Origin: Chiloscyllium plagiosum
Lineage: Eukaryota
Length of the DNA: 64,000 bases
Assembly: GCF_004010195.1 (NCBI RefSeq)
Contig: NC_057753.1
Span: 5,963,961-6,027,960, forward strand
Direction: 5' to 3'
Shown here in pieces: positions 5,132 to 52,843 of the stretch. The notes under the pieces were generated by a model. The model saw only the letters and a program-made list of their open reading frames with translations, was not told where the DNA came from and did no database searches. Every line of letters starts with the position of its first letter. Position 1 is the first letter of the stretch. The position numbers and the translations under genes are program-made.

Positions 5132-5201
5132 ATGCATGTACCACCAAGAGGTCTCGAATATGCTATTTTTTACACATTGCTTGCAGCTATTGCGGTCCCA
5201 G
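5132..5201 (+). CDS. GPR139/GPR142-like class A GPCR gene A1, coding exon 1 (MHVPPRGLEYAIFYTLLAAIAVP + 1 nt)
   Basis: ATG at 5132; 70-nt exon ending CCA G|GTAAAG (donor 5202). Encodes the start of hydrophobic TM1. Near-identical exon at 28325 and an equivalent one at 49786. Splices in frame (phase 1) to the acceptor at 6336. Confidence 0.88.
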
Positions 5202-6336
5202 GTAAAGTACTTTGGCTCACACAACAGGTAAAGTACTGTGGACTAGATTACAGAGATTTTGAAGTTGTGCTATACTTGTATAATTTATTAGTTAGACTCC
5301 ATCTGTGAGATTTCCTTTAGTTGTGGACGCCTTGCATTGGAAAGATAATCTGTCAAGATGTTCAAAATAGTTGAATGAATGTCATAGCATGACATATAGA
5401 TTTCCTCTGATATAGGGATGCAAGTGCGCATTAGTTGTAAATTGTCTTTTTTAAAAATCTTGAATGCACGTGTTACTGGCGAGAGTACCATTTGTTACTC
5501 TTTCCTAATGGCCTTGGAGTAGGTATTGCTGAGCTGCTACATTGAACTACTGGAATCTCTGCGGTTTTGATACATCCAAAGTGACGGCCATGAATATCTT
5601 CTCGAACCATAACCACACATTCGTGTAGTTTAATGTTAGGATTTTCTGTGGTTATAGAAGGACCTTGCAGTTATTGGTTTCACATTCACCTATTGCATTT
5701 CCTCTTCTCGTTGACTGTTTTATAGAACAGGCTGAGGAGACTTAGTGAGTTGTTGCAATGGACATTGTAGAGGGTAAACATTTCTACTATTGTGCATGCG
5801 TGGTAGTAAAACTGAAGATTGCAGGTGTTACCTTGCATGGTAATCAATCTGTCTATTATGACCACTCATAAATGCATTTATGAACGCCAGGATCACTCAG
5901 TTTTATGTCGAGATCTGTCAGTGCAACTGATTTCGAATATATTGAGATTTTGTCCATTGTTTCATGTTAATACAGGTTCTAATTCTTTTCTTTCGCAGTG
6001 TGGGGAATAATCAGCGATTTACTGAATTGAACATATCTTGACTAATTGATTCAAATCATTTGAAATGTCCATGTAATAATGTATTTTCTTGTCTGCATGA
6101 GTTTTAACATGGTTTTCATTAAACTGTCTTATTTAGTCTGTTTCAGCTTCACCGTAGTTATGATGTTTCTAATGGTACTATTGTAACATCTGATATAGTA
6201 ATGTAAGAATTTGATTATTTTTAGTCCCCAGTGAATGAAGCTATTTATGATGCGTTGAAACGTTATATAATGCAGATCACAAATAATACTCAATCTTGAA
6301 ATCTCTTCTTAGCTGTTTGTCTCTTTAATATTACAG

Positions 6337-7241
6337 TAAATGTTGTCGCAATTGTGATCCTCTCCCAAGGAAGATGTGGTCTCTCTAAATGTATCACGCA
6401 GTACCTGGTATCTATGGCAATTACAGATCTTCTGGTTATTATCACTGCTGTGTTATTAAATCGTATTCCGGGTATTTATTTTCCAGGCAGTTTTCTGTCC
6501 ATTACTCCCGTGTGCAGTATGAGTACCACATTGATTTATGCCTCCAGAGACTGTTCTGTGTGGCTAACAGTCACTTTCAGTTTCGACCGGTTCATAGCAA
6601 TTTGTTATCAAAAGCTGAAAATAAAATATTACGCAGAAAAGATGGCAATTTTTGTGATAGTAATGGTCTGTGTCCTGAGTTGTGTAAAAAATATCCCTTG
6701 GTATTTTATTCATGAACCTATCTACACAATTGGAATTGTCCCCTGGTATTGTAGAATAAAAGATGTACGTTATACTTCAGTTGCATGGAAAATATTTGAT
6801 TGGGCTGACCGTATTTTAACTCCATGTCTCCCATTTCTTCTGATTCTTCTATTCAATGCTGTCACTGTCAGGCATATTCTTGCAGTCAACAGAGCCCGAA
6901 AAAGGCTCATGATCCACAAAAATGAATGTAACCAAAATGATCCTGAGATTGAGAGCAGGAGAAAGTCCATCGTTTTACTCTTTGCCATCTCTGGCAGTTT
7001 CATCCTATTGTGGCTGACGTACATTATACGCTTTATATACGACCGATTGACAACTGACAATAAAATCAATGGTTTCACTGACCCCAAGTTCATTTTTCGT
7101 GAATGTGCAAATATGCTTCAGCTTTTGAGCTGTTGTACAAACACTTTTATTTATGCTGTGACTCAGAGTAAATTCAGGGAGCAGTTAATTAACAAGTTAC
7201 AAAGTCCACTGACTCTAATGCGTAACTTGCTGAAACAATGA
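6337..7241 (+). CDS. GPR139/GPR142-like class A GPCR gene A1, coding exon 2 (spliced product 324 aa)
   Basis: Pyrimidine tract + TTACAG acceptor (6331-6336). Open frame (ORF 6354..7241) with class A hallmarks: N1.50 (PVN), MAITD (D2.50), TPVC (C3.25), SVWLTVTFSFDRF, ECL2 PWYC, LTPCLP (TM5), FILLW (TM6), ANMLQLL..NTFIY (TM7), SKFR (helix 8). Motifs resemble GPR139 (P-ANI..IILS, YL..A..D, SIWITV..T.DRY, ANMLALL). Confidence 0.92.
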
Positions 7242-8004
7242 AACATAAAAACTCACTGAATTTCCCTTGTCAACCTTAAATATTCGAAAACGACGATTAG
7301 TTTTGTTTGTTGTATTTTCGTTTGATAGTTATGCATTAATTGAGCATGCAAACATAGACTGTGATCGTACAACACAATTTTTGAAATAATCCTGTACCGA
7401 AAAGGAAACAAAAAAATGAATGCTCACTCCGCATGATCTGCCTCCACCAGAGAAAGAAATGTTTCCATTTCCTGGCAGATGACGTTCTGTGGCAATGACG
7501 TAGCCATTACATTTCCCAACAAATAATAACTCCAAAAGCAATGGCATGCGTTTTACTGACAATTAAGCATCGGATTTTCATGATCTTACCAAAAGATTTG
7601 CAAGGGTTCAGAAGAGTTGCTCTTCTACAATCTAGGATTCTTCGAAGATCGTGATTGTAAAGTCCATCAACCTGTTTCATTCTGTCACAATTGAAGAGGT
7701 GTGTGTATGTTATGTGCGTATATGTATGAGCAACTGTTGTTCCTTGAATCTGGAATAAAGAAGATAAGTCCGTCTTTACTAGAAGCTATTTAATGTGCAT
7801 AGCTTGTGAAATAGACATTTGCAAGGAACTAGACAGAATGAAATAAAGTCATAAACATGTCTGAATATATTAACAGTAAAACACTGTTCATGCTTAGAAT
7901 TACTTTCCTCATATACATGACATATTTGACATTCCAAAGGTTTCCAATTATCCAGAGAATTAAACATTCCTGGCATCTTTCATGAAATTACTCTTGCTTT
8001 ATGG

Positions 8005-8356
8005 AATCATAAAATTCATATAGTGTTCAAGCAGGCTATTCGGTCCATCAAGTCCACACGCACCTCAAAAGAGAATTCCATCCAGACCGACTACACTATC
8101 CCCGGAACCCTGCAGCACTCTTGGCTAATTCAACTATCCTCCACATCCCTGGACACTATGGGCAATTTAGCATACCCACTTCACGTAATGTGTACATCTT
8201 CAGATTGTGAGAGTAAGCCAGAACACTAAGAGAAAACCCATGCAGACAGGAGAATGTTCAAACTCCAGACAGAGAGTCACATGGCAGAGGAATGAAAACT
8301 GAGTCGCTGTTGCTGTGAGGCAGCAAAACTAAAAAAATGCGTTATCACCATGCCCC
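8005..8356 (-). mobile_element. HE1-like SINE (diverged)
   Basis: Same head, core and tail as 1040-1315. Confidence 0.7.
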
Positions 8357-9200
8357 TGTGGCTGCACATGTCAAACAATAATGCATGGTCTAATCACCAA
8401 CTGTTACCCTTTCTCGTGTTAAATTATCATTTCATAATCGTGGTTCACCAGCTTTGATATTTTTGCATATGGTTATTAATCTTTGATATATTTGACAAGT
8501 TCAGGATGTCCTGTCAGACGGAAATAGAGGATATTAAGGATGTTATGTACAATTACCACCAGGAAACCAAACAGGAAAACTCAATGATTAATCAAAGTCC
8601 CCAATTTCCGAGTTAGTAGAATGCTTAATCTATTGAGCGTTATTGAGTGGTTTAGGGAGAACTTTAAAAGGTGGCATTTCATAGGTTAAGGAGAAAAAAC
8701 TGGAAATCAGTTCAAAGACCATGGCAAAATAATAAATCTTAGCAACTTTTATAGCGTAAGATCGATTATATATAATTCCGTTACAGAGAAGTGAGATGAC
8801 CTTTAACAGTGTAAGTAAAGGGTGTTTGAACAACACGACTTACATTGCGACACAGTGTGACACAATATCACGTACTCTCAGTCAATCAGAGCCTCTTTAA
8901 TATTGACAAAAACAGATGCCATTGAGGAAATTAAGCAATGTGACATGGAGACCTCAGGATGTAAATAATAAAAAATTGGGAATAAACACCGCAGCGATAG
9001 TGAAAAATCCAAGTTGCCAATTTCCTTTTGTAATTCATATACATATGATGGATTTGTCCTGGAAAATGTGTCTGCAATTCTAAGTAGAGAAAGGCAGTTC
9101 GGCTGCAGTAATCACTTCACATTGGTCTTCATGGTAGTGGAAGAGGAGCAACTAACAATGAGATGAGGAAAAAAAACGACCTGGAACACGTCTGGCGAAT

Positions 9201-9301
9201 ACGTGCAAACTCCACACAGTCAGTCGCCTGAGGCGGGAATTGAACCCGGATCTCTGGCGCTGTGAGGCAGCAGTGCTAACCACTGTGCCACCGTGCCGCC
9301 C
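9201..9301 (-). mobile_element. SINE 5' head only, flanked by a ~90-bp direct duplication
   Basis: Reverse complement of 3255-3355; flanks 9110-9200 and 9304-9392 are direct repeats. Confidence 0.85.
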
Positions 9302-9607
9302 ACAATCACTTCGCATTGGTTTCATGGTAGTGGAAGACGAGCAACTAACAATGAGATGAGGAAAAAAATGACCTGGAACACGTCTGGCGAATCTCCTTCT
9401 TTCTTCTTCAATTGTAAAAGAAATGACATGAGCACGATAGAGATGACAGATTGCCAAAGATCGAACGAGGTGATGTGAAAGAAGACTAGTTGAAATGTAC
9501 CCGGAACCATCCCCGTTCTCTACCGCCCTCCTCCGCCAGGCCAAACCGCTCTCATTTTGGACAACTTCTTCATTAATGCCTCTCACTATTACCCGATCAA
9601 AGATATG

Positions 9608-10050
9608 AACATGGAATACCCATGGCTCAAAGTAATAAGTGTCTCTTTGTATGATACTTGTCATATTCCAGTCCTATTCTAGTCCCTCCCCTTCATAACT
9701 CTTGCTTAGGTACATTAATGACTTTGTTGGTGTTACTTCTCTGTCTTGCCCACAGTTGGAAAAAGAGTTAACAATCTTGCTTCCAAATTTCACCTGCTCT
9801 CACCTTCAACAATCCATCACTGATTCCTCCCTCCCCTTCCTCGCCATCTCTATTTCCATTTCTGGTGATAGGGTGGTCACCTATAGGCAAGACAAAACTA
9901 CTTATTCCCACAGTTAACTTAAGTGTACACCCTCACACACTGCTTCCTGCAACGTCTCCTTTCCATTTTCCGGTTTCTCCAGCTCCATCGCACCTGTTCA
10001 ATGATGCCAGCTTCTACATGAGGCATTCTGAACGTTCAAAAAACTTTATC
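9608..10050 (+). mobile_element. Penelope-like RT fragment (decayed)
   Basis: LRYIND (YIDD-like), SITDSSLPFL.ISISISGDR, ..TYSHS, then SC...PFS-like sequence. Appears to resume after the LTR at ~11081 (RGF-like). Confidence 0.7.
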
Positions 10051-10051
10051 T

Positions 10052-11080
10052 TGTTATGGATCAGACCATACTCCACCACCTCCCTCACACCAGAAAAGAA
10101 AAATAAAATAAAGTAAAGAGGCAACCTAGACATAAGCCTTTATATTCATTTAAAGGCAAGTTTAAGGCGCCGTAATTAATAGACAATAGACAATAGGTGC
10201 AGGAGTAGGCCATTCCGTCCTTCGAGCCTGCACCACCATTCAGTATGATCATGGGTGATCATCCTCAATCAGTATCCTGTTCCTGCCTTATCTCCATAAC
10301 CCTTGAATCCACTATATTTGAGAGGTCTATCCAACTCTTTCTTAAACTAATCCAGAGACTTGGCCTCCACAGCCCTCTGGGGCAGAGCATTCCACACACC
10401 CACCACTCTCTTGAAGAAGTTTCTCCTCATCTCTGTCCTAAATGGCCTACCCCTTATTTTTAAGCGGTGTCCTCTGGTTCGGGGCTCACCCATCAGTGGA
10501 AAGATGTTTCCTGCCTCCAGAGAGTCCATGTTCATGATTTCGATACAACCGCTAGATACAGGCAAAACACACTTTATTTTTTCCATCACAGTTAAAATAT
10601 AACTTGATTGAAATACTTACCAATATGATATATAATTTAACCACCAATCATTAACTATTCTAATGTAAGCACTGCTCCCTAAACACATCCTTGGCATGGC
10701 AATTTAGACAATCATTTTTTTTTGTTTCCAGTGCTGACTTTCTCCAGGGCAGCCGGAAAATAATACTGAGAAAAGGAAGTCTACTTTTATTTCAAAGAGG
10801 AAAATCTTTCTAACTCTTCACGAGCAGAAGGAAGAGAGAGCTCTGCCTATTTGCTCCAGCAGTTACCAACTCAAAATCAAACTGAAAGCAAAACCAAAAG
10901 AACCCTTGTTTTTGCCTGACTCCACCCACTCATGCTTCTATTGTCGGATTTTTTTCTCTAAGAAAAGCAACATTATTTACTCTGCTTTCCTAAAATACGC
11001 ACCCGTCCACCAAGGTGGCAATACGCTTCTGCAAAAGACACAGGACAGATCATGTCTCTTTAAGGCATAGTCGCATCACA
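10052..11080 (-). mobile_element. Solo LTR (Gypsy-like), interrupted by a CR1 3' fragment (~10178-10530)
   Basis: Minus strand begins tgtgatgcgac and ends ggtctgatccataaca, matching the ends of the LTRs at 2507 and 21554. Confidence 0.55.
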
Positions 11081-11174
11081 TCCTCACACAAGGGTTCGCC
11101 ACCAAATGTTTAACAGGGGCATTAACTATATCGATCCACCTCTGGCACTTCTTCCCACAAACCTGATCTTCTCG

Positions 11175-11298
11175 CTGACTATGCGTAGCAGCTGGTTTTG
11201 GACTCGGGTAGACAAAGATAAAAATTGCACGACATCAGTTCGGAATCCAACAGGTTTATGTGGAAATGCTAGCTTTCGGAGCACTGCTCCTTCATCAG
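11175..11298 (-). mobile_element. pLTR-derived short repeat with hammerhead core (same family as 26016-26224)
   Basis: Minus strand CTGATGA-AGGAGC AGT GCTCC-GAAAGCTA followed by ataaacctgttgga. Interrupted at ~11300 by a CR1 3' tail. Confidence 0.65.
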
Positions 11299-11863
11299 TT
11301 AAAAGAACAAAGAAAATTACAGCACAGGAACACGCCTTTCGGCCCTCCGAGGCTGCACTGATCCAGATCCTCCATCGAAACCTGTTTCCCATTTTCTAAA
11401 GATCCGTATCCCTCTGCTCTCTGTAGACGAGGAGCGAGAATGACAAATTTGCATTTACATTGATGATTTTGCTTCTCAACGGGTAATTTGTGCTTTATTT
11501 GTAATCTGTTGCATTTTTAACCAACTTCATAGTCGTAAAGATATGCCACTGCCTTCATGCGTTTTCACCATTACTGTTTTGTAAGCTACTTCAAAAATTC
11601 ATTGTTCTCTTTCTTTTTGTTGCACGTTCCTGCATTTTATTCAAACGTCCTGCATTATATGTAACGTAGACAAATATTCCAAGTACAGAAATACTTGCGT
11701 GTGACAATGTAATGCAACTCAGGATTACTTTCGAAAGTGTAAACTTCACTTAAAGTGCAAATTTGATGAGTTTGCTTGGACTTTAATAAGGCAGTGTTCT
11801 GCCTAATATTGCTCACATTGAAATTAGTCCAACCTTCTCTCAGATTGCCTCTCTTTCTTACAG

Positions 11864-12527
11864 TTGACGTGGTGTTTGTTCTGTGCAAAACACAATGTGG
11901 TCTTTGACACTTTATGGCAATACGTTATCAGAAATTAAAAGCAAACTATTGCACTAAAAAAAGACCCTGCAGTGTTGGCTATATGTACTATATGTGCATT
12001 TAGCTGCTAAAAAGCAAGTTTCTGCATTTTAACAATATAACCTAGTTCTGCAGTGCTGAATCTATATTGTACTCATCATCTGCCTGGATTCGTGTGACTG
12101 GATTCTTCGCATCGTCAGCTCTTTTTTGTTAATTGCATTGATTTCACTGCTCGCTTTCATGACTGTCAGGCATATTATGGCAACCAGTAAAACTCCAAAA
12201 ATACTCTGCAAACACGACAATAGTGGCAATCAGAGTATTCCAAAGATGGAGAAGAGGAGAAGTTCATGGTTTTATTGTTTGGCATCTCAGTAGATTTCTT
12301 CAAATAATAATTGCTAAGTATTGTAAAATTCCTTGATAGGCAAATTACCAGCGTATTTCTTAGGTGCTAATTTCAAAGAATGAAGCTATATTCTGGAGGA
12401 AACCAGACTTTTCCTAAAGATCTTGTGTTTCTGCATCAATCGATTTATTTATGCTGTGACTCAGAGCAAGGTGAGGATGGTAATAATACCCCGTCAGTAA
12501 AATCATTGAGTTGTTTTAAGCGATGAA
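11864..12527 (+). pseudogene. Unprocessed pseudogene psiB1 of the B-type GPR139-like receptor (exon 2 remnant)
   Basis: Acceptor CTTACAG (ends 11863), then sequence colinear with B2 exon 2 (caatgtggtcttt; cagaaattaaaagcaaactattgcact; gactggattcttcgcatc; gatggagaagaggagaag; tttatttatgct). Has a ~200-bp deletion of TM2-TM3, frameshifts and stops. Intron (11465-11863) and 3' flank (to ~12790) also align to B2. No exon 1 found. Confidence 0.85.
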
Positions 12528-12789
12528 AACAGCTAAATACAAAATGACTTATACATTACAGCAATGTCTTCTTATTTCTGTCCATGCCACATATAACCTC
12601 TTTTCCCAGGTCGATGGTCACTTAGATACACTTAGCAGTTGTGTGATCTATAAAAAAAGACATCAATTTATGTATCCTGTGGCAACATTTCTCTATTAAA
12701 TTCCCGTTCCATTCCTTATGTTATGCCAAGTCTGATCATGCTCCACGGTTCAGAGGTGCCCGAGGTATCCTCTTTCCTCAGGGTATAGG

Positions 12790-21136: not shown

Positions 21137-21172
<36 letters not shown>

Positions 21173-28275: not shown

Positions 28276-28324
28276 CAGATTGCACATGCAATCAGGAACA
28301 CAGATCAATATCTCTGATAGAGCA

Positions 28325-35045: not shown

Positions 35046-35169
35046 TTAGAATTATGCTTAGCGCCCAGTGAATATCTTTATCATGTGCGGAAACTTAATA
35101 TAATACAGATCAGATATAATACTTAATCTGTAAATCTATTCATAACCGTTTGTCTCTTTAATCTTACAG

Positions 35170-37077: not shown

Positions 37078-37375
37078 CCTTTTCCTTAGATGACGTCAGC
37101 TTGTCCGAAGGGGCATAATTACAAATTGAGGGGTCATAGATTTAAGACAGATGTCAGAGGCAGGTTCTTTACGCAGAGAGCGGTAAGGGCGTGGAATGCC
37201 CTTCCTGCTATTGTCGTCAACTCAGCCACATTAGGGAGATTTAAACAATCCTTGGATAAGCACATGGATGATTTTCGCATAGTGTAGGGGTACGAGCTGA
37301 GAACAGTTCACAGGTCGGCACAACATTGAGGGCCAAAGGGCCTATTCTGCGCTGTATTGTTCCATGTTCTATGTT
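37078..37375 (+). mobile_element. CR1 3' end fragment
   Basis: KGHNYKLRGHRFKTDVRGRFFTQRAVRAWNALP plus tail. Confidence 0.85.
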
Positions 37376-38613: not shown

Positions 38614-38724
38614 GACAGCTCTCTGCCTGTATTCCTGATGAAGGGCTTTGCCCGAAACGTCGATTTTACTGCTCCTCGGATGCTGCCTGAACTGCTGTGC
38701 TCTTCCAGCACCACTAATCCAGAA
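38614..38724 (+). mobile_element. Short pLTR-derived insertion with hammerhead core and 13-bp TSD
   Basis: CTGATGA(38635)-A-GGGC TTT GCCC-GAAA-CGTC. Flanked by an exact TGTCCTTTAGTAG repeat at 38601-38613 and 38725-38737. Confidence 0.8.
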
Positions 38725-39647
38725 TGTCCTTTAGTAGCGGCCGAGTTGTGACGGTGAAGGATATGGAAGTCCAATGGGTGCTCCCAGTGTGGATTTAATC
38801 TCTGCTGACTGTATTCCATTTCCTCCCTGATTTCAGCCCAATGTTAATTCAATTCACTTTCTGTGGGGTTCCTATATTTTCGCCTGCTTAAAAAACGGAA
38901 ATGACTGAAATTTGCGGTTCTCTGTTGGAAAGAAATTGTTGTTTATGTCAGTGCACTCAAAAATGGTTTGCTGTTTCCTTTTGATTAAAAAAAATCCGCA
39001 AAATATAAAGGGTTGAAATTTGCTGACAGCACAAGAGATGAAAAACGTTTAATATTTTTACAGTTACTGCAGACAGAGTATTAGTTCATTCAGTCAGGAG
39101 CAGAAATCAGTGTTCTTAATAAAGAATACATTGCAAACGAATTGAATGCGATGATATTCACAGTAGATGAGGGAAAATTGGAATGCACTGCTCCCAGTTA
39201 AATTGTCCTTTCTGAGAATCAGCAGTGACATTATGGATTGAGATGCAGTGTGGTCTTTGAACATTTTGAAATGCAGTGCGGTCTTTGAACGCCAAGGTTA
39301 GACTCCTGTCCATTGTCTCTTATCACTCCTTATTTAAATCATGTGCTGGCAACATTAAAATCTTGATGGCAGTGGTTGGTGCACATCTCAAACAGTACCT
39401 GCGCGAAACACAGGGTGGAAATTAATGATTCCACAATTGAAACTGAGGAAATGAGAGAAAATGCTGCAATATCAACTCACATCCGTCCCTTTAGTGGAGG
39501 AAGTGGAAGAATTACAAGTGAGTGCAGACCTGTTGAAGCTTTTACTGTCTTACCAAACTGGGAAATAGCCAATAACGGGATTGAGGTGCTAGAGTGTTAA
39601 AGATCTGATGAAATGATTTGTGTGGTCAACGTTTATCCTACAAACAT

Positions 39648-39884
39648 TGTTGTGGTTCTGTTCGCCGAGCTGGAAGTTTTTGTTGCAAACGTTTCGTCCC
39701 CTGGCTAGGCGACATCATCAGTGCTTGGGAGCCTCCTGCGAAGCGCTTCTTTGATGTTTCCTCTGGTGTTTATAGTGGTCTGTCCCTGCCGCTTCCGGTT
39801 GTCAGTTTCAGCTGTCCGCTGTAGTGGTTGGTATATTGGGTCCAGGTCGATGTGTTTGTTGATGGAGTTTGTGGATGAATGCCA
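39648..39884 (-). mobile_element. Penelope-like element 3' fragment (ORF C-terminus + pLTR)
   Basis: Minus strand encodes WHSSTNSINKHIDLDPIY, homologous to ~20608-20665, followed by a pLTR with a hammerhead. Confidence 0.82.
39685..39724 (-). ncRNA. Minimal hammerhead ribozyme motif (intact core)
   Basis: Minus strand GCA-CTGATGA-T-GTCGCC(TAGCCA)GGGGAC-GAAA-CGTT-TGC: stem I GCA/TGC, stem II with one mismatch, palindromic ACGT stem III, GUU triplet. Confidence 0.75.
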
Positions 39885-41600
39885 GCCTCCTGCTTATCTA
39901 CCTTGGATTCCAGCATCGATTTTATTCTATCTATATTTCCAAAGCAGCCTACCACGTGTAAATTTATCAAACACGTTACCGAAATCCATGTTGACGCATG
40001 ATCTCTGACGCACAATGTCACACTGTTTCTAAGCGAACCCGGACTTTCCGAATTCATGTATATCGTACCTCTCAAAGTCTTCTGAAGTTACTGACCTACT
40101 GCAAATGTGGTAGGTTTTCTTTCCCAGGTTTTTCTTTGTGAGCATTCTTTGAAAAGAGTACAGCATTCTCTATTCTTCGGTCTTCTGGAACCTCACCCAT
40201 GGCTAATGGTGATGCAAAAGTATCAGCCAGGCACTCCATTCTCGAGATTCTTGTATTTTATTCATCTTCACAAATTCTAATACATCTAACACTTTCACAA
40301 CTGTGATATGGACTGTCCTCAATTATCAACACCAACGTCCCCAACAGCCAATGCTTCATGGCTTTCTCCATGATAAACACAGATGAGAAATATTTATTGA
40401 GAACCTCACCCAGCTCTCGCGTTTCTACATATACATATTCACTCTGCTCCTTGAATGATCATACTCTGTTTCTAGTTATTCTTTATTCTAGTTAGCCTGG
40501 TTGGATTCGCCCTAATCATCTCACCCAAGGACATCTTGTGTCTACTTTTCACCCTTCTGATTTCCTTATTCAACAAGCTGTTATATCCCCTATAAATTCC
40601 AAGGATTTTCTTGACCTCAACTGCATGTAAACGAGGCATGCGCCCTTTTTTTTCTGGTCCAAGCCTCAATATCCCGGCATCCAGGGTTCCCTGTTCCTTT
40701 TAAACTTGCCTTGCACTCTCACACAAAGATATAGACTTAGAATGTTAGCTATCACATTTTAAATGCCTCCCACCTGCCTGAGGTTCCTTTGCTTGCAAAC
40801 AGACTACTCCAAGCAACCACTGCAAGCTCCTGTCTAAATGCACTTAAGTTTGTCTTGTCCCAGTATAGAACTTGAACCTGTGGATCAGTTCTGTTCCTCT
40901 CCATTGCTATTTTGTTGATATAACTAAGTTCATTGCTCCCACAGTGCACACTCACTGTGAACTCCGTTACGTGTTCTGCCCTATTTCTCAAGAGTAGATC
41001 GAGTTTTGCCCCTTCCCGAGTAGGACCGCCTATATACTCCTTGAGGAAACTTTCTGAAACGCCTTTAAGAAATTCTAACCCATCTAAACCCTTAAAGATC
41101 TGGTAGTTCCAGTCTCTTCTAGAACAATCAACTTCCCTTATTATAACTTGTTCCTGCAAGCCTTCCCAATCTCCCTGCTGATTTATCTGTCTAAATCTCG
41201 TTGACGATTTAGATGCTCATAGTACAACCCCAATCACGTCACCACCCCCTTCATGTTGCTTATCTCCACCCACAAAGCCTTGCCAGGTAATTCTTTAGTT
41301 ATTTCATCTCTGATTTCTGCTGTGACTCTCGCCTTGATTAAAAATGCAACTCCCCCTCCCACTTTCAACCACCTCTGTCCCATCTAAAGCATCTGTGTTC
41401 TGGCACATGAAGCTGTCATTCTTGTTCCTCCCTTCACCATCTATCTGTATTGGCTGTCATGCCCTGATTTCATCAGTCTTACCTGTCAGCCCTCTTAGGT
41501 TAAAGTAAATGCAATTCAATCCAACAGGCCATCCTGGCTTCCTGTCATGTTCCAGCCTTACCCGCCTCTTCAATTTATTATTACTGCATACTATATCTCT
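39885..41600 (-). mobile_element. CR1 LINE ORF2 5' part, decayed
   Basis: Minus ORFs LNCIYFNLRGLTGK and PTREGAKLDLLL. Confidence 0.75.
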
Positions 41601-42624
41601 TTCCAAACTCGCACTTGCCTCCTTGCAAGTTTCAATTTCAGAATAAGACGATTGTTTAATTTGTTTAATGACAACAGATGGAGGACAAATACAATAGGAC
41701 ATTTGAAATGCGACTAATTTATTTCATACGTCACTGGGGTAGAGATTTCACAAAGCTATCATTTTTTACACAGTAAACTGAACGTGCGCTACTTTGCAAA
41801 AAGTCATGATCAACAACAATGTTCATGGTGGAAAATCAATCCTTAACATCAGTGCACAGAGTGCCTTGTTTCTACATCGAATTTATTTACCGTCTTCTCT
41901 TGCCAGTTTTGGAGTTTTTTTTTCTGTTTAACAAACCCTTACTTATAAACAGAAGTTGCTGAACAGGTCAGTCGGTCTGGCTGCATCTGTGAAGATAATT
42001 CAGAGTTAACGTTGTGGATCTACTGACCCTTCCTATTTTATGCACTTCGGCAAGGTTAACTGTGCAGTATCGGGAATGTGCCATTTTCTGTCCATTTGAC
42101 TGATCCGTCGTTATGGATAATGCAATGATTTCCTGTTCTTCATTGAGCAGCTATGACTATTTAAGGAGAGTAGCGTGTGACTGTCACGTTTTAAATATAA
42201 TTGAATGGATACGTTAACATTCTTACTAGTTAAAGATTCTTCAGCTTCTCCTGGCGATTGGCAATCTGGTGACTTCTTAGCAAGGGATCTTTCCATAATT
42301 TATGTTCAACTTTGTCATCACTTCTCGACAGCGCATGATTCATGAGGAACTGTAGATACTGCGTTTATGCATCATGTTTCTTTAGTCATGGAAAGACGGA
42401 AAGATAAAATGCAGAAGAATCCCTTCATCTTACTTTTCAGAACCTGGCTATATCATGTAATAGATTGATGGGAATTTTTAACTCATAAAGTAAGGAAATG
42501 AAAACCGAGTAAAATCCGCCTACATGTGCTGGGTTGTACATATTGATTCCTGTAGTGGAAGTGTATCAATTTAACCTATTCAAATGAACTTCTGTATTAC
42601 AATATTTGCATTTCAAGCACAACT

Positions 42625-42915
42625 GTTAATTAGATTCCCTGCAGCATGGAAGCAGGCCATTTGGCCCAACCAGTCGACACCGACCCCCTGAAGGGTAACC
42701 CTTCCAGATACATTCCCCTATAAATATAGGATGCAATACTATGGGCAATTTAGCATGACCAATCCACCGGATCCGGGCCTCTTTGGATTTGGAGAGGAAA
42801 CATATCCAGACACAGGGAGAACGTGCGCATTCCACACAGCCAGTAGCCAGAATCGAATCCAGGAGCCTGGCGTTGTAAGGCAGCAGTGCTAACCTCAGAA
42901 CCACCGTGCCACCAC
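42625..42915 (-). mobile_element. HE1-type SINE
   Basis: Same architecture as 1040-1315. Confidence 0.8.
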
Positions 42916-45119
42916 ACATTACCTTGGGGTAACATTTACGCAGATTCTGGAACTTTTATCTTAATCAGTCGAAATGTATACATCCTTTTGCAATAGTTTT
43001 CTCCGTATGCTGCTTCTACAAACAAACTAAGATTCATACAATGCAGAAATTCCTTTATTCTTTAACAGGATTGGACAATTGCTGGTTGGGCAGCAATTTT
43101 TTGCCAATCCCTAATTGCCCCAGAGAGCAGTTGAAAGTCAACCCCATGTCGGCTGGACCAGGTAAGGATGTTCCTTAAAGGATGTTAGTGAAAAGATGGA
43201 GTTTCCAACAATTGTGAAACTGATTCATAGTCGTTATTAGATTCTTAAACCTAGATAATTACGATTGAAATTCCACCCTTTTCCCCATAGTGGGATTCGA
43301 ACGCGGGTCTCTGGAACATTGCCAAGTTTTCTAGATTAACAGTGATAATACCACTGAACTTTCTAATGTCAGCTGTCAATCAATTTTTTCTGTACCTGGC
43401 AAAAGCAAAGCTAGCATAAAACCACAATAAGTCGCATAAAGTTGAAAGTACCTATTGTTATCAGTGCATCCCTTTGGTATAGAGAGTGTCATTTGACATT
43501 TTATATAAATGTGCAAAATCATGAGCGGTTCCATAGAGAGTAGAAAGGTTTGAAAATTATAAGTGCTTGCCACTGGGAACTGGAACAAAATGTTGGTGGT
43601 CAATCTTTCCTGATTGACAAAATAACTAAATTCCAATTGAGGATTTCTTCCTTCATAGAGTGAGATGTTGAGATTTCAGCAACAAATGATTAGCGATATG
43701 ACGTCATATATGACGTGGACTTTAAAATGGCGATTGGAAAGCATGGCAGGAGAATAAATTGTATGTGAGCGTACAATCCAAACAGAGAATGCCATTGACA
43801 GAAAAATCTCTCTCTCCTCATAACTGATAAATAAGTTGGGTTTGGGAGGTGGGTGGACATATTCGGGGTGGGGGGAGACACAGAAGTTGACAGTTTACAG
43901 ATTGTGGTAAAAAAAAACAAAATACAAAATATGATTCCTGTTCAGAGAAATACTCAGACTGCAATCAAAACGTTAACCCCGTTTCTCTGTCCACAGCTGT
44001 TGACAGACCTGCTGTGCTTTGCCAGCATTTTCTGATATTGATGAAAAATATTGGAAGTGTTCACCTGTGGTATTATTCCTATTTTTGTTTTTGCCCGTGT
44101 TCTACTCCAATGACATGAATCTCGGAGTTCATACAATGCAAAACAAGCCAAATTATAATCCGAGCAAAAGTGGGCAGGGGAAACTTTTATCAATAGATGT
44201 TGGAATAATTTAGCTCACTTGTGAAGTGGATATTTGAATATACTTCTTGCCTGAACTTTGAAGGATGGAAAATTCTGCACACATTTTAATTGTCTTGAAC
44301 GTAATACACTTTCTGTAACAAACATGTGTAAAGTGGTTTTCTTCACTTTCGATTGCTGTTTATCTACTGTCGTTTCTTCTTGTTGTTGACGTTGGTGTAT
44401 ATTGCCTTACAAATCCTTATTTTATATAAAGCTCCCATTTTGAGTCTATGCGGTTCCATGTTTAGTGTCTGTTTCTGTCAATCAGATAGATCAGTGCTTA
44501 CAGGTACTGTCCTTCCATGATAGTACCTTCTGCCTGGTCTTGGTTAAAGCTATTGACTTCAACATTATGATTCCGTATTCTAAATTCAATGTGGCCTTGA
44601 GAAAAGTATGTGTCAAACACCTGTCAGAGCTAATTGGCTTGATATGTCAACAACCTTTATTAAGTAACGCTTTGCGGCCTCCCTGGCGTGACTGAGATTT
44701 GAATGACATTTTTTTTTAAAAAAAGGATCTGTATGTAGCCATTCTCAACATTACTTGATGTCACTGTGGAGAATTATACTGACCATATGATGTTTTGGCT
44801 AAGAAATGAAAATGTGTCAAACAACGAGTGAAGTGATACCAATGTTCCTGGACAATGAGCAAACAGTCCTGACTGGAATTAGGCAAGATATAAGAAAACT
44901 AAACAGAAAACTAGCAATTAAGGGAAATGGGAAATATTGAGTGCACTAATAATGGTCTGGAATCACAATTCGTCGAAATCTGACCTGGAAGATTGTCCAG
45001 AAGCAATTGAGAAGCTGAGATGAACTTAGTAGATATGGCATTTTTGGATAAAGGCAGCAGGCTTAATATGGACAGTATACCTTGAGAAGAAGATCGAGCA
45101 TGAATATCGGCACCAGAGG

Positions 45120-45415
45120 ATGGCAGCACGGTGGCTCAGTGGTTAACGCTGCTGCCTCATAACACCAGCGTCTTAGGTTCGATTCCAGCCTTGGCGACTG
45201 TCTGTGTGGAGTTTGTTCATTCTCCTCCTGGCGCTCTGGTTTCCACCCCCAGCCCAAAGATGTGCAGGTCAGATGAGGTGGCCATGCTAAATTGCCCATC
45301 GTGTCAGGTGTATTACTCAGAGGGAAATAAGACTCGATGAGCTACTCTTTAGAGGGTCGGTGTGGACTTGTTGGGCCGAAGTGCCTGTTTCCACACTGTG
45401 GGGAATCTAATCTAA
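45120..45415 (+). mobile_element. HE1-type SINE
   Basis: ggcagcacggtggctcagtggttaac..ggttcgattcc head; gggaatctaatcta tail. Confidence 0.85.
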
Positions 45416-45849
45416 GACTGATACCATATGATAAGGTTCGCAATGCAGAACAGCGATGGCAAAATCCGAGTCTGTTCTGCTCAATAGCAATGTAGTACAA
45501 TTTATGAATTGTGTTCAGATGCAAACAGCATTTTGGCAATTTCAATTTCGTCCCTCTGTTTGATGGGTTGCACCCTTTCTGGAAACTACTCGATAACTAA
45601 TTTGCAATTGAGATCTGTTGTAATTATAAATTTTGTGTAATCCAAACTTTGTTTGTCTTGAAATAGGAAAGCGTTTGTGACTTCACTTATTTTGCCATGA
45701 CACCAGCCAATATTTGTAACCTCGTATATTATTGTAGTTAATAGACAGTACATTGTAATTTTTTTAAAGATTCTGTTGGAAAATGATGACAGTTTAGAAT
45801 TTACCCCATTTCTGTCTCGACAGATGTCCAAAAAATCAAAGTATCATAC

Positions 45850-47590
45850 GATTCCTAAAATAGGGATCCTCAATAGTAGAGAGGCAAGTGCAAGGCTCGA
45901 AGGACATCTCGTAATCAGAAACAGTAAGTTAAAAGGAGAGGTCAAGGTTGAACACGACAGGAACCAAGGAAATCATTTATCATTAAATTGTATTTATTGC
46001 AATACAAGAGGGCTGACAGGTAAAGTTGATTAACTCAGGGCGTGAACAGTAACGTGGGACTGGGACATTATATCGATTACAGAAACAGGTTTAATGGAGA
46101 GAAAGGTCTGGCTGCTTAATGTGCCAAGACAGAGCTGTTTCATGTGGGACAGAGGTGGTAGAAAGAAGGGAAGGAAAGATACATTTTTGATTAAGGTGAG
46201 TATCACATTATTAATCAGAGTCGAAATAACTGAAGGATCACCTGGTGAGGCTTTGTGGGTGGACCTAAGGAACACGCAGGAGATGGTGACGCTATTGGTG
46301 TTGTATTAGAGGCCCACAAATACTCAACTGGAATTAGGGAGAACTTTAACAAGCAATAGGGCCGTCATAATTTCCCAAACACGGAAGGGACTGCCACAAC
46401 GTTGATGGGTTGGAATTTTTTAAGTGTGTTCTGCAAAGTTTACACCAGCAGTATCTAAAGGGTGCTACTTGGCAAGGGGCAAAACGCGACCTACTTTCGG
46501 TAGGGCAGAACAGGTGATAGAGGTGACAGTGGGTGAGCACTTTGGGAGTAGTGGTCATAGTTCTCCTAATTTAAAAACAAAGATATGGAAAGGGACGAAA
46601 GATTCTAGTTTTAAATTAGAGAAAGGCGAATTTTGATGCAATTAGACAGAAGTTTGCAGGGGTTTATTGGAATAGTTTGCAGGCAATCGGACATCTGGAA
46701 CGCCTTTAAAAGTGAGATAGCTAGATGCAAGATCTATATGCTCCTGTGAGCGTGAAGGACAAGGTTGGCAGGAAGAGGAAACCCTGGACGACAAGAGATG
46801 CGAAGACTTTGAACAGAAAAGAAAGGAGACTTATCTTCAGGTTCAGGGAGTTGTAATCAAAAGAATCCCTAGAGGTACAGTGTGAGGTGCTGCATTTTGG
46901 AATGTCAAATCAATGTAAAAGTTCCATGGTGAATGGTAGAGCCTTAATGAGTGCAGTGGAAGAGACGAATCTTTGGGTTCAGGCTCTGAGTTCTGTGAAA
47001 TTTGAGTCACTGGTAGACAGGGCATTGAAACAAGGCCTTTGGCACACTGGCCTACATCAGTCAGGAGATTGGTATAGAAATCAGGAAGTTACATTGTAGT
47101 AATGCGTGACGTTTCTGAGCCACATTTAGAGTACTGTGTTTAGTTTTAGTCACATGAAAAGGGCGTGATTAAATTAAAAAGAAAATTCGAAATTTTTGCG
47201 CATGTTGCCTGGACTCAATCATCTGAGTTATGGAGAGACTTTAGACAAGCTGGAGTTTAGGAAACAGCAGGAGAATGTTATTTTAGTGCATAATATCATG
47301 ATAGTGTGAGTGTACTCAGTCTTTCTCTCAGTGTTCGGGAATCGAGGACTCGAGTGCATGAGTTTAAGTTGAGAGGAGAAAGAACGCAAATGGTTGAGCT
47401 GCAAGCGGAAGTGGCTGAAGCAGACACATTAACAACATTTAAAGGCATTTGGACACATACATAAACAGGAAAGGATTAGAAGGAAATGGGGCAATGCAGA
47501 GGAATGGGCTTAATGTGGACGGACATCTTCTTTTAGCAGGAGCCAGTTTTTTGCCAAAGTGCTTGTGTCTGCGCTTTAGGAATCCATGAG
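45850..47590 (+). mobile_element. CR1 LINE, internally deleted and decayed
   Basis: LNCIYCNTRGLTGK, EHFGSSGHS, CEVLHFG, LEYCV motifs. Confidence 0.75.
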
Positions 47591-47794
47591 TCTACGATTG
47601 TAATGTGGAAAGCGGCCATTTGGCCCATCAAGCCGGCACGGACAATTTGCATCACACCGACTCAGTCCCTTATCCTCTCCCTGTAACCGTACCAAGTTTT
47701 TTTTTTCATTTAGCCTGCACATTCCTGGACACTGTGGACAATTTATCATAATCAATCCACAGAAACAGCACATCTTTTTTAACTCTGTGAAGAA

Positions 47795-48760
47795 ACCGGT
47801 TGCAAACAGTGAAGAAACCAGTTGACCAGTGGTGTTCCAAAGAGATCAGTGCTGAGCCACTGTTGTTTGTAATATACATAATTGATCTGGAAGAGCGCAC
47901 TGTTGGTACGATCAGTAAGTTTTCGGAGAGTTGGGTGGAGAACTGGCAGATGGATTTCAATCCTGGCAAATGTGAGGTTATGCATTTTGGGAAGTCTAAT
48001 TCTAGAGTGAATTATACAGTAAACCGAAAAACCTTGTTAAAAGTTGATCAGCAGGGAGATCTGGGAGTTCGGGTTTATTGTGTCCTGAAGGTTGTTGCAC
48101 AGGTGGATAGAGTGGTCAAGAAGGCAAATGGTATGCTTGTCTTCATCGGACGGGGTATTGAGTATAAGAGCTGGCAGGTCATGTTAAAATTGTACAACAT
48201 ATTGGTTCGGCTGCATTTAGAATACTGTATATACTTCTAGTTGCCATATTACCAAAAGGATGAGGATGCTTTGGAGAGGGTACAGAGAAGGTTTATGGGG
48301 ATGTTGTCTGGTATGTAAAGTGCTTGCGATGAAGAGAGGTTGAGTAGGTTAGGGTTGTTTTCATTAGAAAAAATGAGTTTGAGGGTCACATGTTTGAGGT
48401 CTACAAAATCATGAAGGGTATAGACAGGGTTGATAGAGATAAACGTTTTTCCCAGGGTGAAGGATTCAATAACGAGAGGTCACACTTTCAAGTGAGAGGT
48501 GAAAAGTTTAAGGGGGAATACCCGTGGCAAGTACTTTACAGAGCGGGTGGTAGGTGTCTGGATTGCGTTGCCAGCAGAGGTAGTATAGCCAGGCACGATA
48601 GATTCATTTAAGATGTGTCTAGACAGATGCATGAGTGGATGGGGAGCAGAGGGATACAGATGCTTAAGAATTGGGCGACAGTGGAATTGGATCGGCTCAG
48701 GCTCCGAGGACCGAAAGGCCTGCTCCTGAGCTGTAAATTTTCTTTGTTCTTTGTTTTTTT
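47795..48760 (+). mobile_element. CR1 LINE 3' portion
   Basis: ORF 47800..48240 WQMDFNPGKCEVMHFG...HLEYC; tail like 3862-4106. Confidence 0.88.
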
Positions 48761-49258
48761 TTGTAAATGCACGCCGGCGCGGGAAGCGCGTACACACTCT
48801 GTGGAGACAGTCTCCCAAGGCAAGAATCGAATCCAGGTCCCTGGCACTGTAAGACATCAGTGAAGTAGCATTATGTATTTTATTGCATTTCTTTTCTTTT
48901 TACTTTGACTCAGATATTACGCTCATGTTCTGGATGGAAATTAGAGGGAACATGTCTTGTCCACAGTGAATTTCATTACAATAATCGACACTTGTCCTAC
49001 GAAGATTGTAACATTGCTGACGTTGATGCTGCCAACCGGCAAGGTTAACATAAGGTAAATAACGTTTGCAGACATTCAGATTATCCCAAATACCACATCA
49101 ATAATTAGGAACAGGATATATTGATTTTAACTACGTTAAATTTATTGAGTAAAATAGGTCTGAATAGTGTTCGGTCACATTAAGAAAAAAATATCATTAG
49201 ATAAATAGATAGATTGGTGGAGAGACTTGTTAAAACAATGTGAACAAGTGTGGAAGTT

Positions 49259-49312
49259 CCAGCAACACATTTTCAGCTCTGGTCTCCAGCATCTGCAGTC
49301 CGCACTTTCTCC
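49259..49312 (+). mobile_element. Short 3' fragment of the pLTR-derived repeat
   Basis: Nearly identical to 51719-51772; flanked by tggaagtt / tggaggtt. Confidence 0.65.
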
Positions 49313-49678
49313 TGGAGGTTTTAGAAGCCAGGATCATGCTATCCAATTTCGTGTCGGCCAACGTGGTGAAAAGAAGATGGAACCAGAGTTTACATCATTT
49401 CCCACAGCATCAGAACATCGTAACATCGTTGTTCATTAAATATTTTCCTGAGGCTATCCTATACAGCGTTTGGGAAAAACAATCTCACAATTTTCTGAAG
49501 CACAAGAATACATTTTAATCCTTAAACAATATGAAAATCATATGTACAACACTGTCGTCGTCTATATTTATTCCACGAAAAACACTTGATTTTCCTTTAA
49601 AATATTTTAGTTCATTAAAGTGTTATCATAAATTCGCGAGCAGATGTTGTAGTCTCTTTTCTTCAATTAGTATGATTA

Positions 49679-49733
49679 ATTTGCATGATAAAACGCTCTA
49701 ATTTTCTCCCTGAAGGTTAACATCAGGTATAAG
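49679..49733 (+). promoter_or_regulatory. Putative core promoter of gene B2 (octamer ATTTGCAT 49679, module 49698-49721, TATAAG 49728)
   Basis: TATA-like box 58 nt before the ATG; CTAATT-N4-CCCT spacing identical to A1 and A2. Confidence 0.45.
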
Positions 49734-49785
49734 TGCCAACAATCCTTGAATGCAATCTAAACCTCAGTGAGGATTTCCTATAGCG

Positions 49786-49855
49786 ATGCATGGGTCAAAG
49801 AAAGAACTGGTGTTTGCCATTTGCTACCCAGTCCTTGCGTCTATTGGCATTCCAG
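49786..49855 (+). CDS. GPR139/GPR142-like GPCR gene B2, coding exon 1 (MHGSKKELVFAICYPVLASIGIP + 1 nt)
   Basis: Below the ORF-track cutoff, found by eye. ATG 49786, exactly 70 nt, donor CCA G|GTAATT at 49856. Same length and phase as the A1/A2 first exons; joins in frame to give IGIP-ANLVVIAILS. Confidence 0.85.
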
Positions 49856-50796
49856 GTAATTAGTGCTATTAAATGACTTATTTTAAAAGTCGTTTGATAG
49901 TATTCCAGTAATGTTGGTAAGTTCAGTATTATTTTTCATCAGAAAGCTCATCCATAATTTTTCTTGAGAAGGTCCTGGTAAGTCAACGTTGGAAACCAGT
50001 AAATATTTTGAACACGTCTCGATCCCTCTGTAAAATGTTTCCAGGGTTTCAATGACGTGACGGTGAAGGAACATCGATAAGTTTTCAAGACAGTATGTTG
50101 TGTAGCTGGGAATGAACTTTTCAGGCAATGACGTTCCTTTGCAAGAAAGCTCAGGTGACAGGTTTGGAAAGGACTGAGAAAGAAGCTTAAGCAAATTGTC
50201 GTAGTTGTAATTTAAATGGGCACACTGCTCTCTGTACATCTGTACTTGAGGATTTAAATGTTAATGTAAGGCATCCAGTCCATTTTTTTTGGACTTCTCT
50301 AATATTGTAAAGAATTGTTTGTGTGTTCTTGGAGCTACATTCATTCAGATAAGTTTTGAGTATTACTTCACACTGATGAGGACTTTAAAAGCAGAAGGCT
50401 AAGCAATTTGCTGCAAAATTCCCAGCGTCTGATCTACTGTTTTAGGCATTTCTTTTAATAGTTCAGTTCAGATTATGAGCACATATCGTCTCCATTGTGC
50501 TTAGTACATCTTCAGTCTTTTCAGGACTGGCTTCATGGCTTAAAACACCACAGTATCTAATGCATTATCCACATTCTTGACGCTGGTGGTCTCTGGGCGA
50601 AGTCAGTCTATCACTAATTCACGAATTGCAGTTATTGTAGTTGCTTAATGTTTCTAATTTATTATGTCATGCCGGAATCACATCACAAATTGTGATCAGG
50701 GAATTTGATGTGCCTTTCCTTCCAATGTTTAAGGTCATACATCACTTCCTTTCAAATTTTTAGTATACTTTTATTGGTCTGAGTGAAGCATTTAGG

Positions 50797-51130
50797 GAGG
50801 CCCGATGGCTCAGTGGTTAGCAGTGCTATCTCACAGCAGCAGGAAGCTGGGTTCGATTCCAGCTGCGGACGACTATCTGTCTGGTGTGTGCACATTCTCC
50901 CCGTCTCCGTGTGGGTTTTCTTGAGGCACTCTGGTTTCTTCCAACAATCCTAAGATGTGCAGGTTAGGTGAATTGGCTGTGGTAAATTGCCATAATGGTC
51001 AGGGATATGTAAAGGTTTGGTGCATTAGTCAGGGGGAAAACACACTGTAGGGGAATGGGTTCCTAATTGGAGGATGGGCACAGAATTATTGGGCTGAAAG
51101 GCCTGTTTACATGTTGTTATGATTCTATGA
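50797..51130 (+). mobile_element. HE1-type SINE in the B2 intron
   Basis: tggctcagtggttagcagtgct..ggttcgattcc head, core, gattctatga tail. Confidence 0.8.
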
Positions 51131-51605
51131 TATAACTGCTCTTGGTAACAAACATATCTTCTCCAGATGCAATTGCTATTTAAAAGTGTATCTTTTTTCA
51201 ACAACCTTTATGTTACTTCAAAAAGAGTTAATTGTCTGTTTTTGGGTGGGAGAAAATGTGAAACAGGAGGCTTTTCCAATGAAGGAATCATTGTTTTTGG
51301 CGATTCAATGTATAGGAATGCATTTGATATCTAGGATAATATAATTCAATTTACTTTGACGTTTTGCCTTCTCAATGATTAATTTGTGTGTTATGTGTAA
51401 TCTGTTGCATTTTAACTAACTTCATGACGTTTACAAAATGTCACTGCCATCAGGTTTCTTCAACATTCTTGTTTTGCAAACTTCTTTATAAAAACAAGCA
51501 TATTTTCCTGCGTTCATTTTTGCACATTTCTGCATTTTATTCAGACGTTTTGCATTGTTCTTTAACCTACATAAATTTTGCAAGTACAGACGTGGAACAA
51601 TATAA

Positions 51606-51772
51606 GCTGAAAAATGTGTTGCTGGAAAAGCGCAGCAGGTCAGGCTTCATCAAAGGAGCAGGAGCCCTTCTTCATGGCCGAAACGTCGATTCTCCTGCTC
51701 CTTTGATGCTGCGCTTTTCCAGCAACACATTTTCAGCTCTGATCTCCAGCATCTGCAGTCCTCACTTTCTCC
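51606..51772 (+). mobile_element. Hairpin-forming pLTR-derived insertion in the B2 intron, 13-bp TSD
   Basis: gctgaaaaatgtgttgctggaaaagcgcagc ... gctgcgcttttccagcaacacattttcagc inverted arms. Exact TGGAACAATATAA at 51593-51605 and 51773-51785. Absent from the paralogous psiB1 intron. Confidence 0.82.
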
Positions 51773-51929
51773 TGGAACAATATAACCCAACTTCAGGATT
51801 ACTTGACAAAGGTGTGAACTTCATCAAAGTGCTATAATTTTGATGATTTATAAGGCAGTGTAATCCCTAATATTGCTCATATACATGCTGCTCCGACTTT
51901 CTCTCAGTTTCCCTCTCCCTTTCTTACAG

Positions 51930-52843
51930 CTAACTTGGTGGTAATTGCAATTCTGTCCAGAGGACAATGTGGTCTTTCCAGATGCATCACAAATTATCTG
52001 GTGTCTATGGCGGCAACAGACGTCCTTGTCATGATTACTGCTGTGGTATTAAACCGGATTCCTGGGATATATTTCCCTGTCAGTTTCCTCTCCATCACAC
52101 CAGTATGCAGTTTACGTTCTGTCCTAATCTATGCAAGCATGGATAGTTCAGTTTGGTTGACTGTTTCATTCACTTTCGATCGCTTTGTAGCAATATGTTG
52201 TCAGAAATTCAAAGCAAAATATTGCACTATAAAATCTTCAGTTAGGATTATATGTACTATCTGTGCAATTAGCTGCTTAAAAGCAAGTTTCTTGTATTTC
52301 ATTTATGAGCCGTCATATGTAATTAACAATATACCTTGGTTTTGCAGCATTAAATTTATATTTTACACATCACCTGTCTGGATTGTATATGACTGGATTC
52401 TTCGCATCTTAAGTCCTTTTCTGCCAATCGCATTGATTTTACTGCTCAATTTCTTGACTGTCAGACATATTGTTGTAACCAGTAGAGCCCGAAAGAGACT
52501 TCGGGCACACAACAATGGAGTCAATCAGTGTGACCCAGAGATGGAGAAGAGGAGAAGGTCCATGGTTTTATTGTTTGCTATTTCGGGAAGTTTCCTCTTG
52601 TTGTATTTGTTAGATATTGTGACTTTCCTTTATGTACAAGTTGTGGGCGCTACTTATTTCTCAGGTGCAAATTCCAAGGAATCGAGTTTTATTCTGGAGG
52701 AAACTGGACTTTTCCTCCAGTTTTTCTGTTCCTGCATCAATCCATTTATTTATGCTGGCACTCAGAACAAATTAAGAACTGAATTACTGAAAGGAGTGAA
52801 ATTTCTGCTCACTAAAGTTATTAAGTTGTTTCAAAGTATGTAA
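51930..52843 (+). CDS. GPR139/GPR142-like GPCR gene B2, coding exon 2 (spliced product 327 aa; divergent subfamily)
   Basis: TTACAG acceptor ending 51929. ORF 51935..52843 with MAATD, TPVC, SVWLTVSFTFDRFVAIC, PWFC, LSPFLP, INPFIY (NPxxY). Confidence 0.92.

Follow-up and report, generated by a model that had tools for sequence, protein, structure and literature searches.

Does a small cluster of G-protein-coupled receptor (GPCR) genes in the shark Chiloscyllium plagiosum belong to a larger receptor repertoire, and what might that repertoire detect? The stretch analysed, hereafter 'the window', comprises 64,000 nucleotides (nt) of contig NC_057753.1 (assembly GCF_004010195.1, positions 5,963,961 to 6,027,960 of the forward strand), and contains three intact two-exon class A GPCR genes (A1, A2 and B) and one B-type pseudogene, all on the + strand. 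The genes belong to an undescribed, elasmobranch-wide GPCR repertoire on the order of a thousand genes. We tentatively favour a reading in which this very large shark and ray family, sister to an orphan receptor, consists of ligand-diversified chemical sensors for cues from outside, probably peptide-sized, expressed in sensory cells. Papers are cited by PMC number, in each case for the sections covered.

Gene structure in the window

Long open reading frames at 6300-7238, 35127-36068 and 51854-52840 are second exons of GPCR genes. Segments of the form ATG...G|GT (64-76 nt, with a proline end) occurred exactly three times in the window, each 70 nt long, at 5132, 28325 and 49786. Spliced to acceptors at 6337, 35170 and 51930, respectively, these first exons gave open proteins without internal stops, each interrupted by a GT..AG phase-1 intron just before residue N1.50 (generic residue numbers are our own assignments from alignments) in transmembrane helix 1 (TM1). 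The resulting features are as follows.

5132..5201, + strand: gene A1, exon 1 (70 nt; N-terminus and first part of TM1)
5202..6336, + strand: gene A1, phase-1 intron (1,135 nt, GT..AG)
6337..7241, + strand: gene A1, exon 2 (rest of the seven-transmembrane (7TM) domain, helix 8, stop; protein of 324 amino acids)
~11865..12525, + strand: B-type pseudogene, exon-2 remnant (intron remnant from ~11453)
28325..28394, + strand: gene A2, exon 1 (70 nt)
28395..35169, + strand: gene A2, phase-1 intron (6,775 nt; ends match the A1 intron, middle of extra repeat-like DNA)
35170..36071, + strand: gene A2, exon 2 (protein of 323 amino acids)
49786..49855, + strand: gene B, exon 1 (70 nt)
49856..51929, + strand: gene B, phase-1 intron (2,074 nt)
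51930..52843, + strand: gene B, exon 2 (protein of 327 amino acids)

The exon-1 model is supported by annotated relatives in other sharks and rays, which have an identical short N-terminus. All three proteins scored 69-72 bits on Pfam 7tm_1 (cut-off 30.5), which places them among class A GPCRs. A1 and A2 were 84% identical and the A and B types about 55% identical to each other, while the pseudogene retained 71% DNA identity to B. It has lost about 200 nt running from intracellular loop 1 (ICL1) into TM3 and is further disrupted by stops and frameshifts, and the window yielded no exon 1 for it. No N-terminal sequon was present in A1, A2 or B; A1 and B have no sequon at all, and A2 has one, in ICL3. 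Gene models and alignments thus agree with the first-pass annotation of this DNA, which had described three intact paralogues and a dead one on one strand, in two subtypes, with a 70-nt exon 1, a phase-1 TM1 intron, a short N-terminus and no N-terminal sequon. Its reading of the motifs, namely DRF, no P6.50, and NTFIY in A1 and A2, was likewise borne out by the alignment, B carrying NPFIY. A further A-type gene lies about 23 kb beyond the window end, and a fragment just ahead of its start.

Family size and intactness in the genome

An exact TM3 motif matched the genome 1,963 times (966+997) and an exact TM7/helix-8 motif 1,231 times (590+641), with no matches for either control. Capture-recapture, restricted to the stretch covered by both motif listings (100 TM3 sites, 76 TM7 sites, overlap 52), gave an estimate of about 2,400-2,900 loci genome-wide. 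A protein search of the same genome produced 8,357 candidates; the 131 that were scored all showed 52-100% identity, 126 of them were without a stop, and 55 lay on the 15-Mb contig of the window. At least 554 loci belonged to a subfamily, called C, that is absent from the window. C-type copies are probably not mostly assembly duplicates, since their mean amino-acid identity was 79% (65-98%).

Many copies were decayed. Among the first 100 TM3 sites, the 96 examined comprised 28 with an intact exon 2, 2 that were open without a clear acceptor, 48 that were broken and 18 in gaps, so that 48 of 78 ungapped loci were broken. Ungapped loci of the WF type had an intact main exon in 25 of 73 cases and were broken in 46; the 30 WL-type loci divided into 21 intact, 8 broken and 1 open. 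With the 267 WL-type matches used as weights, motif-bearing loci are estimated to include about 770 copies whose second exon is intact (530-1,010). Twenty evenly spaced 10-kb tiles of contig C44 held 3 loci, 1 of them intact, which is too few for a density. With at least 1,963 loci in this genome and most of the ungapped sample broken, the earlier description of an expanded birth-and-death family is well founded.

Two other class A GPCR clusters were encountered, one at C37:14.9-16.8 Mb with about a dozen long-loop 7tm_1 matches, and one at C29:31.7-32.1 Mb, of which the one inspected member, L096, looks chemokine-receptor-like.

Distribution and naming

Outside this genome, 2,221 protein matches were found at E<=1e-5. 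Among the best 120 of these, all 118 that were named came from elasmobranchs (17 shark and ray species), most being labelled 'probable GPR139'; since the family occurs in both sharks and rays, the expansion is likely older than their split. The database label misleads: judged from sequence, the family derives from a different orphan lineage. An Atlas search returned GPR139- and FMRFamide-receptor-like clusters only, and a full-text literature search, whose coverage excluded most subscription papers, turned up no paper on the expansion. In the portions covered, no GPR139 label appeared in the supplements of PMC11372145, PMC13188829 and PMC10529500, and in that of PMC13689627 it appeared, among the rows listed, in orthology tables only.

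Phylogenetic placement

A search of this genome for a GPR139/142 motif, tolerating one mismatch, gave two loci, L001 and L002. L002 was 92% identical to white shark GPR142, and L001 closely followed the human GPR139 stretch. GPR139 and GPR142 are therefore present as separate single loci, on contigs C21 and C24, and the window genes are not the true GPR139 orthologue, as had been stated earlier. Wider relatives were gathered by searching 50%-identity representatives with L001. The family profile scored GPR139/142 at 44-66 bits and the best amphioxus rows and those of two groups, here L3 and L4, at 111-134 bits; the high-scoring relatives were a frog protein, bichir and lamprey proteins, and an amphioxus 'GPR139'. 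L3 is a single-copy, non-mammalian GPR139-related orphan (L221 in this genome, P0426 in catshark, P0431 in coelacanth, P0422 in sturgeon, P0398 in frog and P0421 in turtle). Each species appears to have about one such gene, and the 120 matches listed, among which no mammal occurs, cover amphibians, reptiles, coelacanth, ray-finned fishes and sharks. The present genome has one L3 copy (G000:C26:36600778-36601665) and two more relatives, L219 and L220; the three constitute low-copy GPR139-related orphans besides GPR139 and GPR142. In some annotations, L3 genes of the L221 type are merged with TMEM183A.

In a tree of 38 rows under a mixture model, (GPR139, GPR142) was sister to (amphioxus, (L4 group, (L3, family))), with inner-node support of 99/97, 100/96 and, for L3 plus the family, 95/93. 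A 32-row group of GPR139/142, the family and invertebrate relatives stood apart from amine and peptide receptors (99/94), the node joining GPR139/142 to the family's side being weaker (90/70). As placed in this tree, the family is sister to the single-copy non-mammalian orphan and not to GPR139/142. An approximately unbiased (AU) test rejected an exclusive clade of the family with GPR139/142 (p=0.020), a result that, given the long stem of the family, deserves a larger re-test. The first-pass placement in the GPR139/142 clade is thus not supported in its strict sense. The pairing of the family with GPR139/142 in our own first tree was an artefact of missing closer relatives and was superseded by later trees. 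In the family, as in L001, L002 and L219-L221, the acceptor of the TM1 phase-1 intron before N1.50 has the same position and phase.

Rinne et al. 2019 (PMC6504862) gave the tentative names GPR210A/B to sets of orphan receptors that are close to GPR139/142 and occur in coelacanth and fishes. L3 and L4 probably correspond to these sets. The wider clade also takes in insect sex-peptide/MIP receptors (PMC8514136).

Motifs and pocket residues

F3.51, T6.50 and the short N-terminus are common to the family and to L3, and the proline at 7.50 is absent even in GPR139/142. The odd motifs singled out earlier are therefore inherited and no sign of chemoreceptor status. The agonist site of GPR139 has been described as E3.32, F3.33, H5.43, W6.48, R6.51 and N7.38 (PMC7318219). 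Both E3.32 and R6.51 were absent in all 10 family rows, and H5.43 was present in 2 of the 10; A1 retains W6.48, N7.38 and Y3.33, and amphioxus, L3 and lamprey L4 all retain R6.51. With E3.32 and R6.51 both missing in the family, Trp/Phe sensing of the GPR139 kind is unlikely, and the earlier suggestion of amino-acid sensing by analogy with GPR139 finds little footing. The cysteine pair between C3.25 and extracellular loop 2 (ECL2) was complete, both residues being conserved in 100% of 123 aligned sequences; GPR139/142 are without the pair. The Pfam families for OR, TAAR, V1R and T2R gave no match at E<=0.01, the only hits being 7tm_1 and one sub-threshold Srx hit.

Selection and structure model

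Site-wise analysis of the ratio of nonsynonymous (dN) to synonymous (dS) substitution (omega), as proposed in the first-pass annotation, revealed strong positive selection in subfamily C and none in the A and B types of the window. Purifying selection is evident in both types: under model M0, 16 A-type genes of this genome gave an omega of 0.21 and 11 B-type genes one of 0.26; 20 A-type loci had been fetched, of which L206, L212 and L213 were not extracted. Between A1 and A2, dN was 0.075 and dS 0.36. In its A and B subtypes the window contains the conserved portion of the family.

From 19 C-type rows, L140 (broken in TM7) and L167 (a near copy of L166) were left out. For the remaining 17 intact second exons, with loops defined from topology anchors, pairwise omega was 0.27 outside the extracellular loops. 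Comparison of models M2a and M1a on these genes gave twice the log-likelihood difference (2dL) of 322.6, with omega2 7.7 and 15 selected sites; null simulations (three, without recombination) gave 2dL 0-1.1. The 57 loop codons contained fourteen of the selected sites and the other 233 codons a single one, which lies at the top of TM7 (Fisher p 4e-10); each site carried 5-11 different residues among the 17 copies.

A single-sequence fold of P0002 (predicted local distance difference test score, pLDDT, 43) was unusable and was replaced by an alignment-based model of the C-type locus L007 (pLDDT 84), which showed a 7TM fold, an ECL2 hairpin, the C3.25-ECL2 cysteine pair and helix 8. On this model ECL1, the ECL2 hairpin and the extracellular ends of TM5-7 carry the selected sites. 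Variation is almost absent from the intracellular face and from deeper parts of the pocket. From this outward position of the selected sites over a nearly constant pocket we infer that the ligands, like peptides, make contact with the outer vestibule. The best fold matches of the model were mostly peptide receptors.

Expression

In the single-cell run X5 (~13 million records), a C-type locus drew 351 reads at >=80% identity, originating from many paralogues. Of these run X5 sequences, 22 end in a poly(A) tail in the C-type 3' untranslated region, about 17 nt after AATAAA, and no genomic A-run was present at this site in the copies inspected; C-type genes therefore make mRNA. The same locus drew no reads in runs X6 and X8, and 99 contigs in X7. 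Run X1 covers the A1 intron and behaves as DNA. Some of the X5 C-type reads are in the other orientation and may stem from unrelated transcripts. At L015:4503-4636 and 4905-5373, opposite-orientation X5 reads have loose ends, possibly as family fragments in other transcripts or through internal priming.

Functional readings

Birth-and-death arrays this large are typical of OR, TAAR and V1R/V2R repertoires, and the family has the large size, clustering and birth-and-death turnover of a chemosensory repertoire. Were its members chemical sensors, each paralogue would bind a different ligand, the ligands would be peptide-sized, the receptor-bearing cells would be sensory, and signalling would run through the conserved G-protein face. 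A and B would then be old, stable receptors common to sharks and rays, and C the fast-changing front. A more specific version of this, possible but doubtful, is an independent shark and ray chemoreceptor family derived from an orphan peptide-type GPCR, in which olfactory or other sensory cells would sparsely express between several hundred and a thousand intact genes; it would be the missing repertoire behind the large olfactory organs, more than tenfold the OR, TAAR, V1R and V2R genes together. Cartilaginous fishes have been described with only 20-62 known olfactory receptor genes, the smallest such repertoire among vertebrates (mean 43.8 genes; PMC10869828).

Several observations weigh against a role as sensory receptors for external cues. 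The catshark nose has been described as V2R-dominated (PMC10116579), and no GPCR appears, in the part covered, among the top 50 listed for a brain and olfactory library (PMC11979771). The RNA runs, X5 included, carry no tissue label. For A1, X5 contained a single read at 90-95% identity, and X6 and X7 contained none; a search of sequencing runs listed no RNA source of A1, a result given no weight here. The selection signal was seen in subfamily C, A- and B-type genes being without a positively selected class (2dL 0.0 and 0.8, respectively). Even in C-type genes the loop-average omega was 1.06 (95% confidence interval 0.77-1.43), not above 1, and the non-loop codons by themselves gave 2dL 16.1. 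The site model was implemented in code of our own with a fixed tree, and its signal may be inflated by gene conversion. Fold-match scores were similar across many class A receptors and indicate no ligand. As to gene number, 'intact' refers to exon 2 only and sampling was mostly on two contigs; the assembly consists of 101,977 contigs, in which some loci may be allelic; and a C-type exon 1 was detected in 1 of 10 loci within 15 kb. An omega near 8 is, moreover, also typical of immune and reproductive genes.

The main rival, a close one though somewhat less probable, is a repertoire of immune or barrier tissues that detects microbial, parasite or non-self peptides, in the manner of the mammalian FPR or MRGPR expansions. 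The very strong positive selection that subfamily C shows on its outer face, fast turnover (46 of 73 ungapped WF-type loci broken) and the presence of C-type mRNA in a single-cell library from which A1 was absent would all be expected from it. The library, however, has no tissue label, and the conservation of the A and B subtypes extends to both sharks and rays. In the portions covered, the supplements of two shark immune single-cell papers also lack a GPR139 label, a weak point against this rival, as unnamed paralogues may carry other identifiers.

Reproduction or individual recognition, with the receptors on gametes or serving for conspecific peptide signals outside the nose, is improbable. 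Gamete-recognition genes show equally strong positive selection, and the insect receptors of the wider clade noted above are consistent with such a role; to our knowledge, however, hundreds of paralogues exceed any gamete-recognition system. We hold it just as improbable that segmental duplication accounts for most of the copy number, with few copies that matter and loop variation due to relaxed constraint and gene conversion. The DNA upstream of C-type copies does match at ~80-89% over as much as 15 kb, including between copies on contigs C5 and C8; broken loci form the majority of those sampled, and loop-average omega is about 1. Against this, omega of 0.21-0.26 in A and B and of 0.27 in C outside the loops means that many copies are kept as proteins, the selected sites cluster in the loops, and the family persists in 17 species. 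Least probable are aromatic amino-acid sensors like GPR139 and GPR142, the ligand guess of the first-pass annotation: the A-type residues W6.48 and N7.38, the aromatic residue at 3.33, the shared TM1 intron and human GPR139 as the best PDB sequence match (E 2.5e-9) favour them, but the agonist-site residues missing from all family rows, the scarcity of H5.43 and the rejected exclusive clade do not.

Whatever the function, a single shark with an estimated 530-1,010 copies whose main exon is intact contradicts the 'relative paucity' of GPCRs described for cartilaginous fishes (PMC8455134), the family having been hidden under a wrong automatic name. A sensory repertoire would answer why sharks have many olfactory neurons yet few known receptors, and an immune one would mean that the oldest lineage of jawed vertebrates encodes a large array of detectors in its germline. 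The single-copy sister gene offers a tractable route to the ancestral ligand.

Mode of spread and surrounding DNA

Non-coding blocks matching at 68-79% show that A1 with the pseudogene, and A2 with B, are two tandem copies of an old A+B cassette:

3586..12704, + strand: first copy of the A+B cassette (non-coding blocks with 68-79% match to the second copy)
27213..53023, + strand: second copy of the A+B cassette (longer, with extra repeat-like DNA)

The blocks, found by self-BLAST, pair 3586-4684 with 27213-28080, 5077-6217 with 28270-29380, 6214-7955 with 35051-36816, and 11453-12704 with 51349-53023. Dispersed C-type copies retain the intron acceptor as well as the long common upstream DNA, and they are therefore, like the cassette, DNA-level duplicates. 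Retrotransposition as the mechanism of spread was ruled out on the same grounds.

On contig C8 (108 Mb), C-type copies occur between 0.3 and 76 Mb every few hundred kb, on both strands and without tight tandem arrays. The intron of several copies (L007, L004, L014) holds a minisatellite with a unit of ~40 bp and variable copy number, ~0.6-1.7 kb upstream of the TM3 motif, and some copies have a second array of ~65-bp period further upstream. In the window, decayed retroelement-like fragments lie between the genes (1-903, 13154-15439, 19354-19953, 21849-22763, 40644-41621 and 45881-46826), which we take to be LINE-like, one resembling a Penelope-type reverse transcriptase. Near-perfect (98%) tandem duplications of 165 and 148 bp at 17396-17727 and 54614-54909, respectively, are possibly assembly artefacts.

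Comparison with known systems

The closest system is the orphan L3, with which the family shares the short N-terminus, the TM1 intron position, C3.25, F3.51, T6.50 and the lack of the 7.50 proline; L3 differs in having about one gene per species and in keeping R6.51, whereas the family has thousands of loci. GPR139 and GPR142, the source of the RefSeq label, belong to the same superclade and share the phase-1 intron before N1.50 and the absence of the NPxxY proline, but they are single loci without C3.25 and keep DRY, P6.50, E3.32 and R6.51. With the OR, TAAR, V1R/ORA, V2R/OlfC and T2R families there is likeness in the clusters on many chromosomes, birth-and-death evolution, many pseudogenes and a short N-terminus; there is no homology to them beyond class A, and the present family has a two-exon structure. 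The formyl peptide receptors and MRGPRs resemble it as class A expansions with variable extracellular loops and roles in immunity and sensing, but they belong to another class A branch and comprise far fewer genes.

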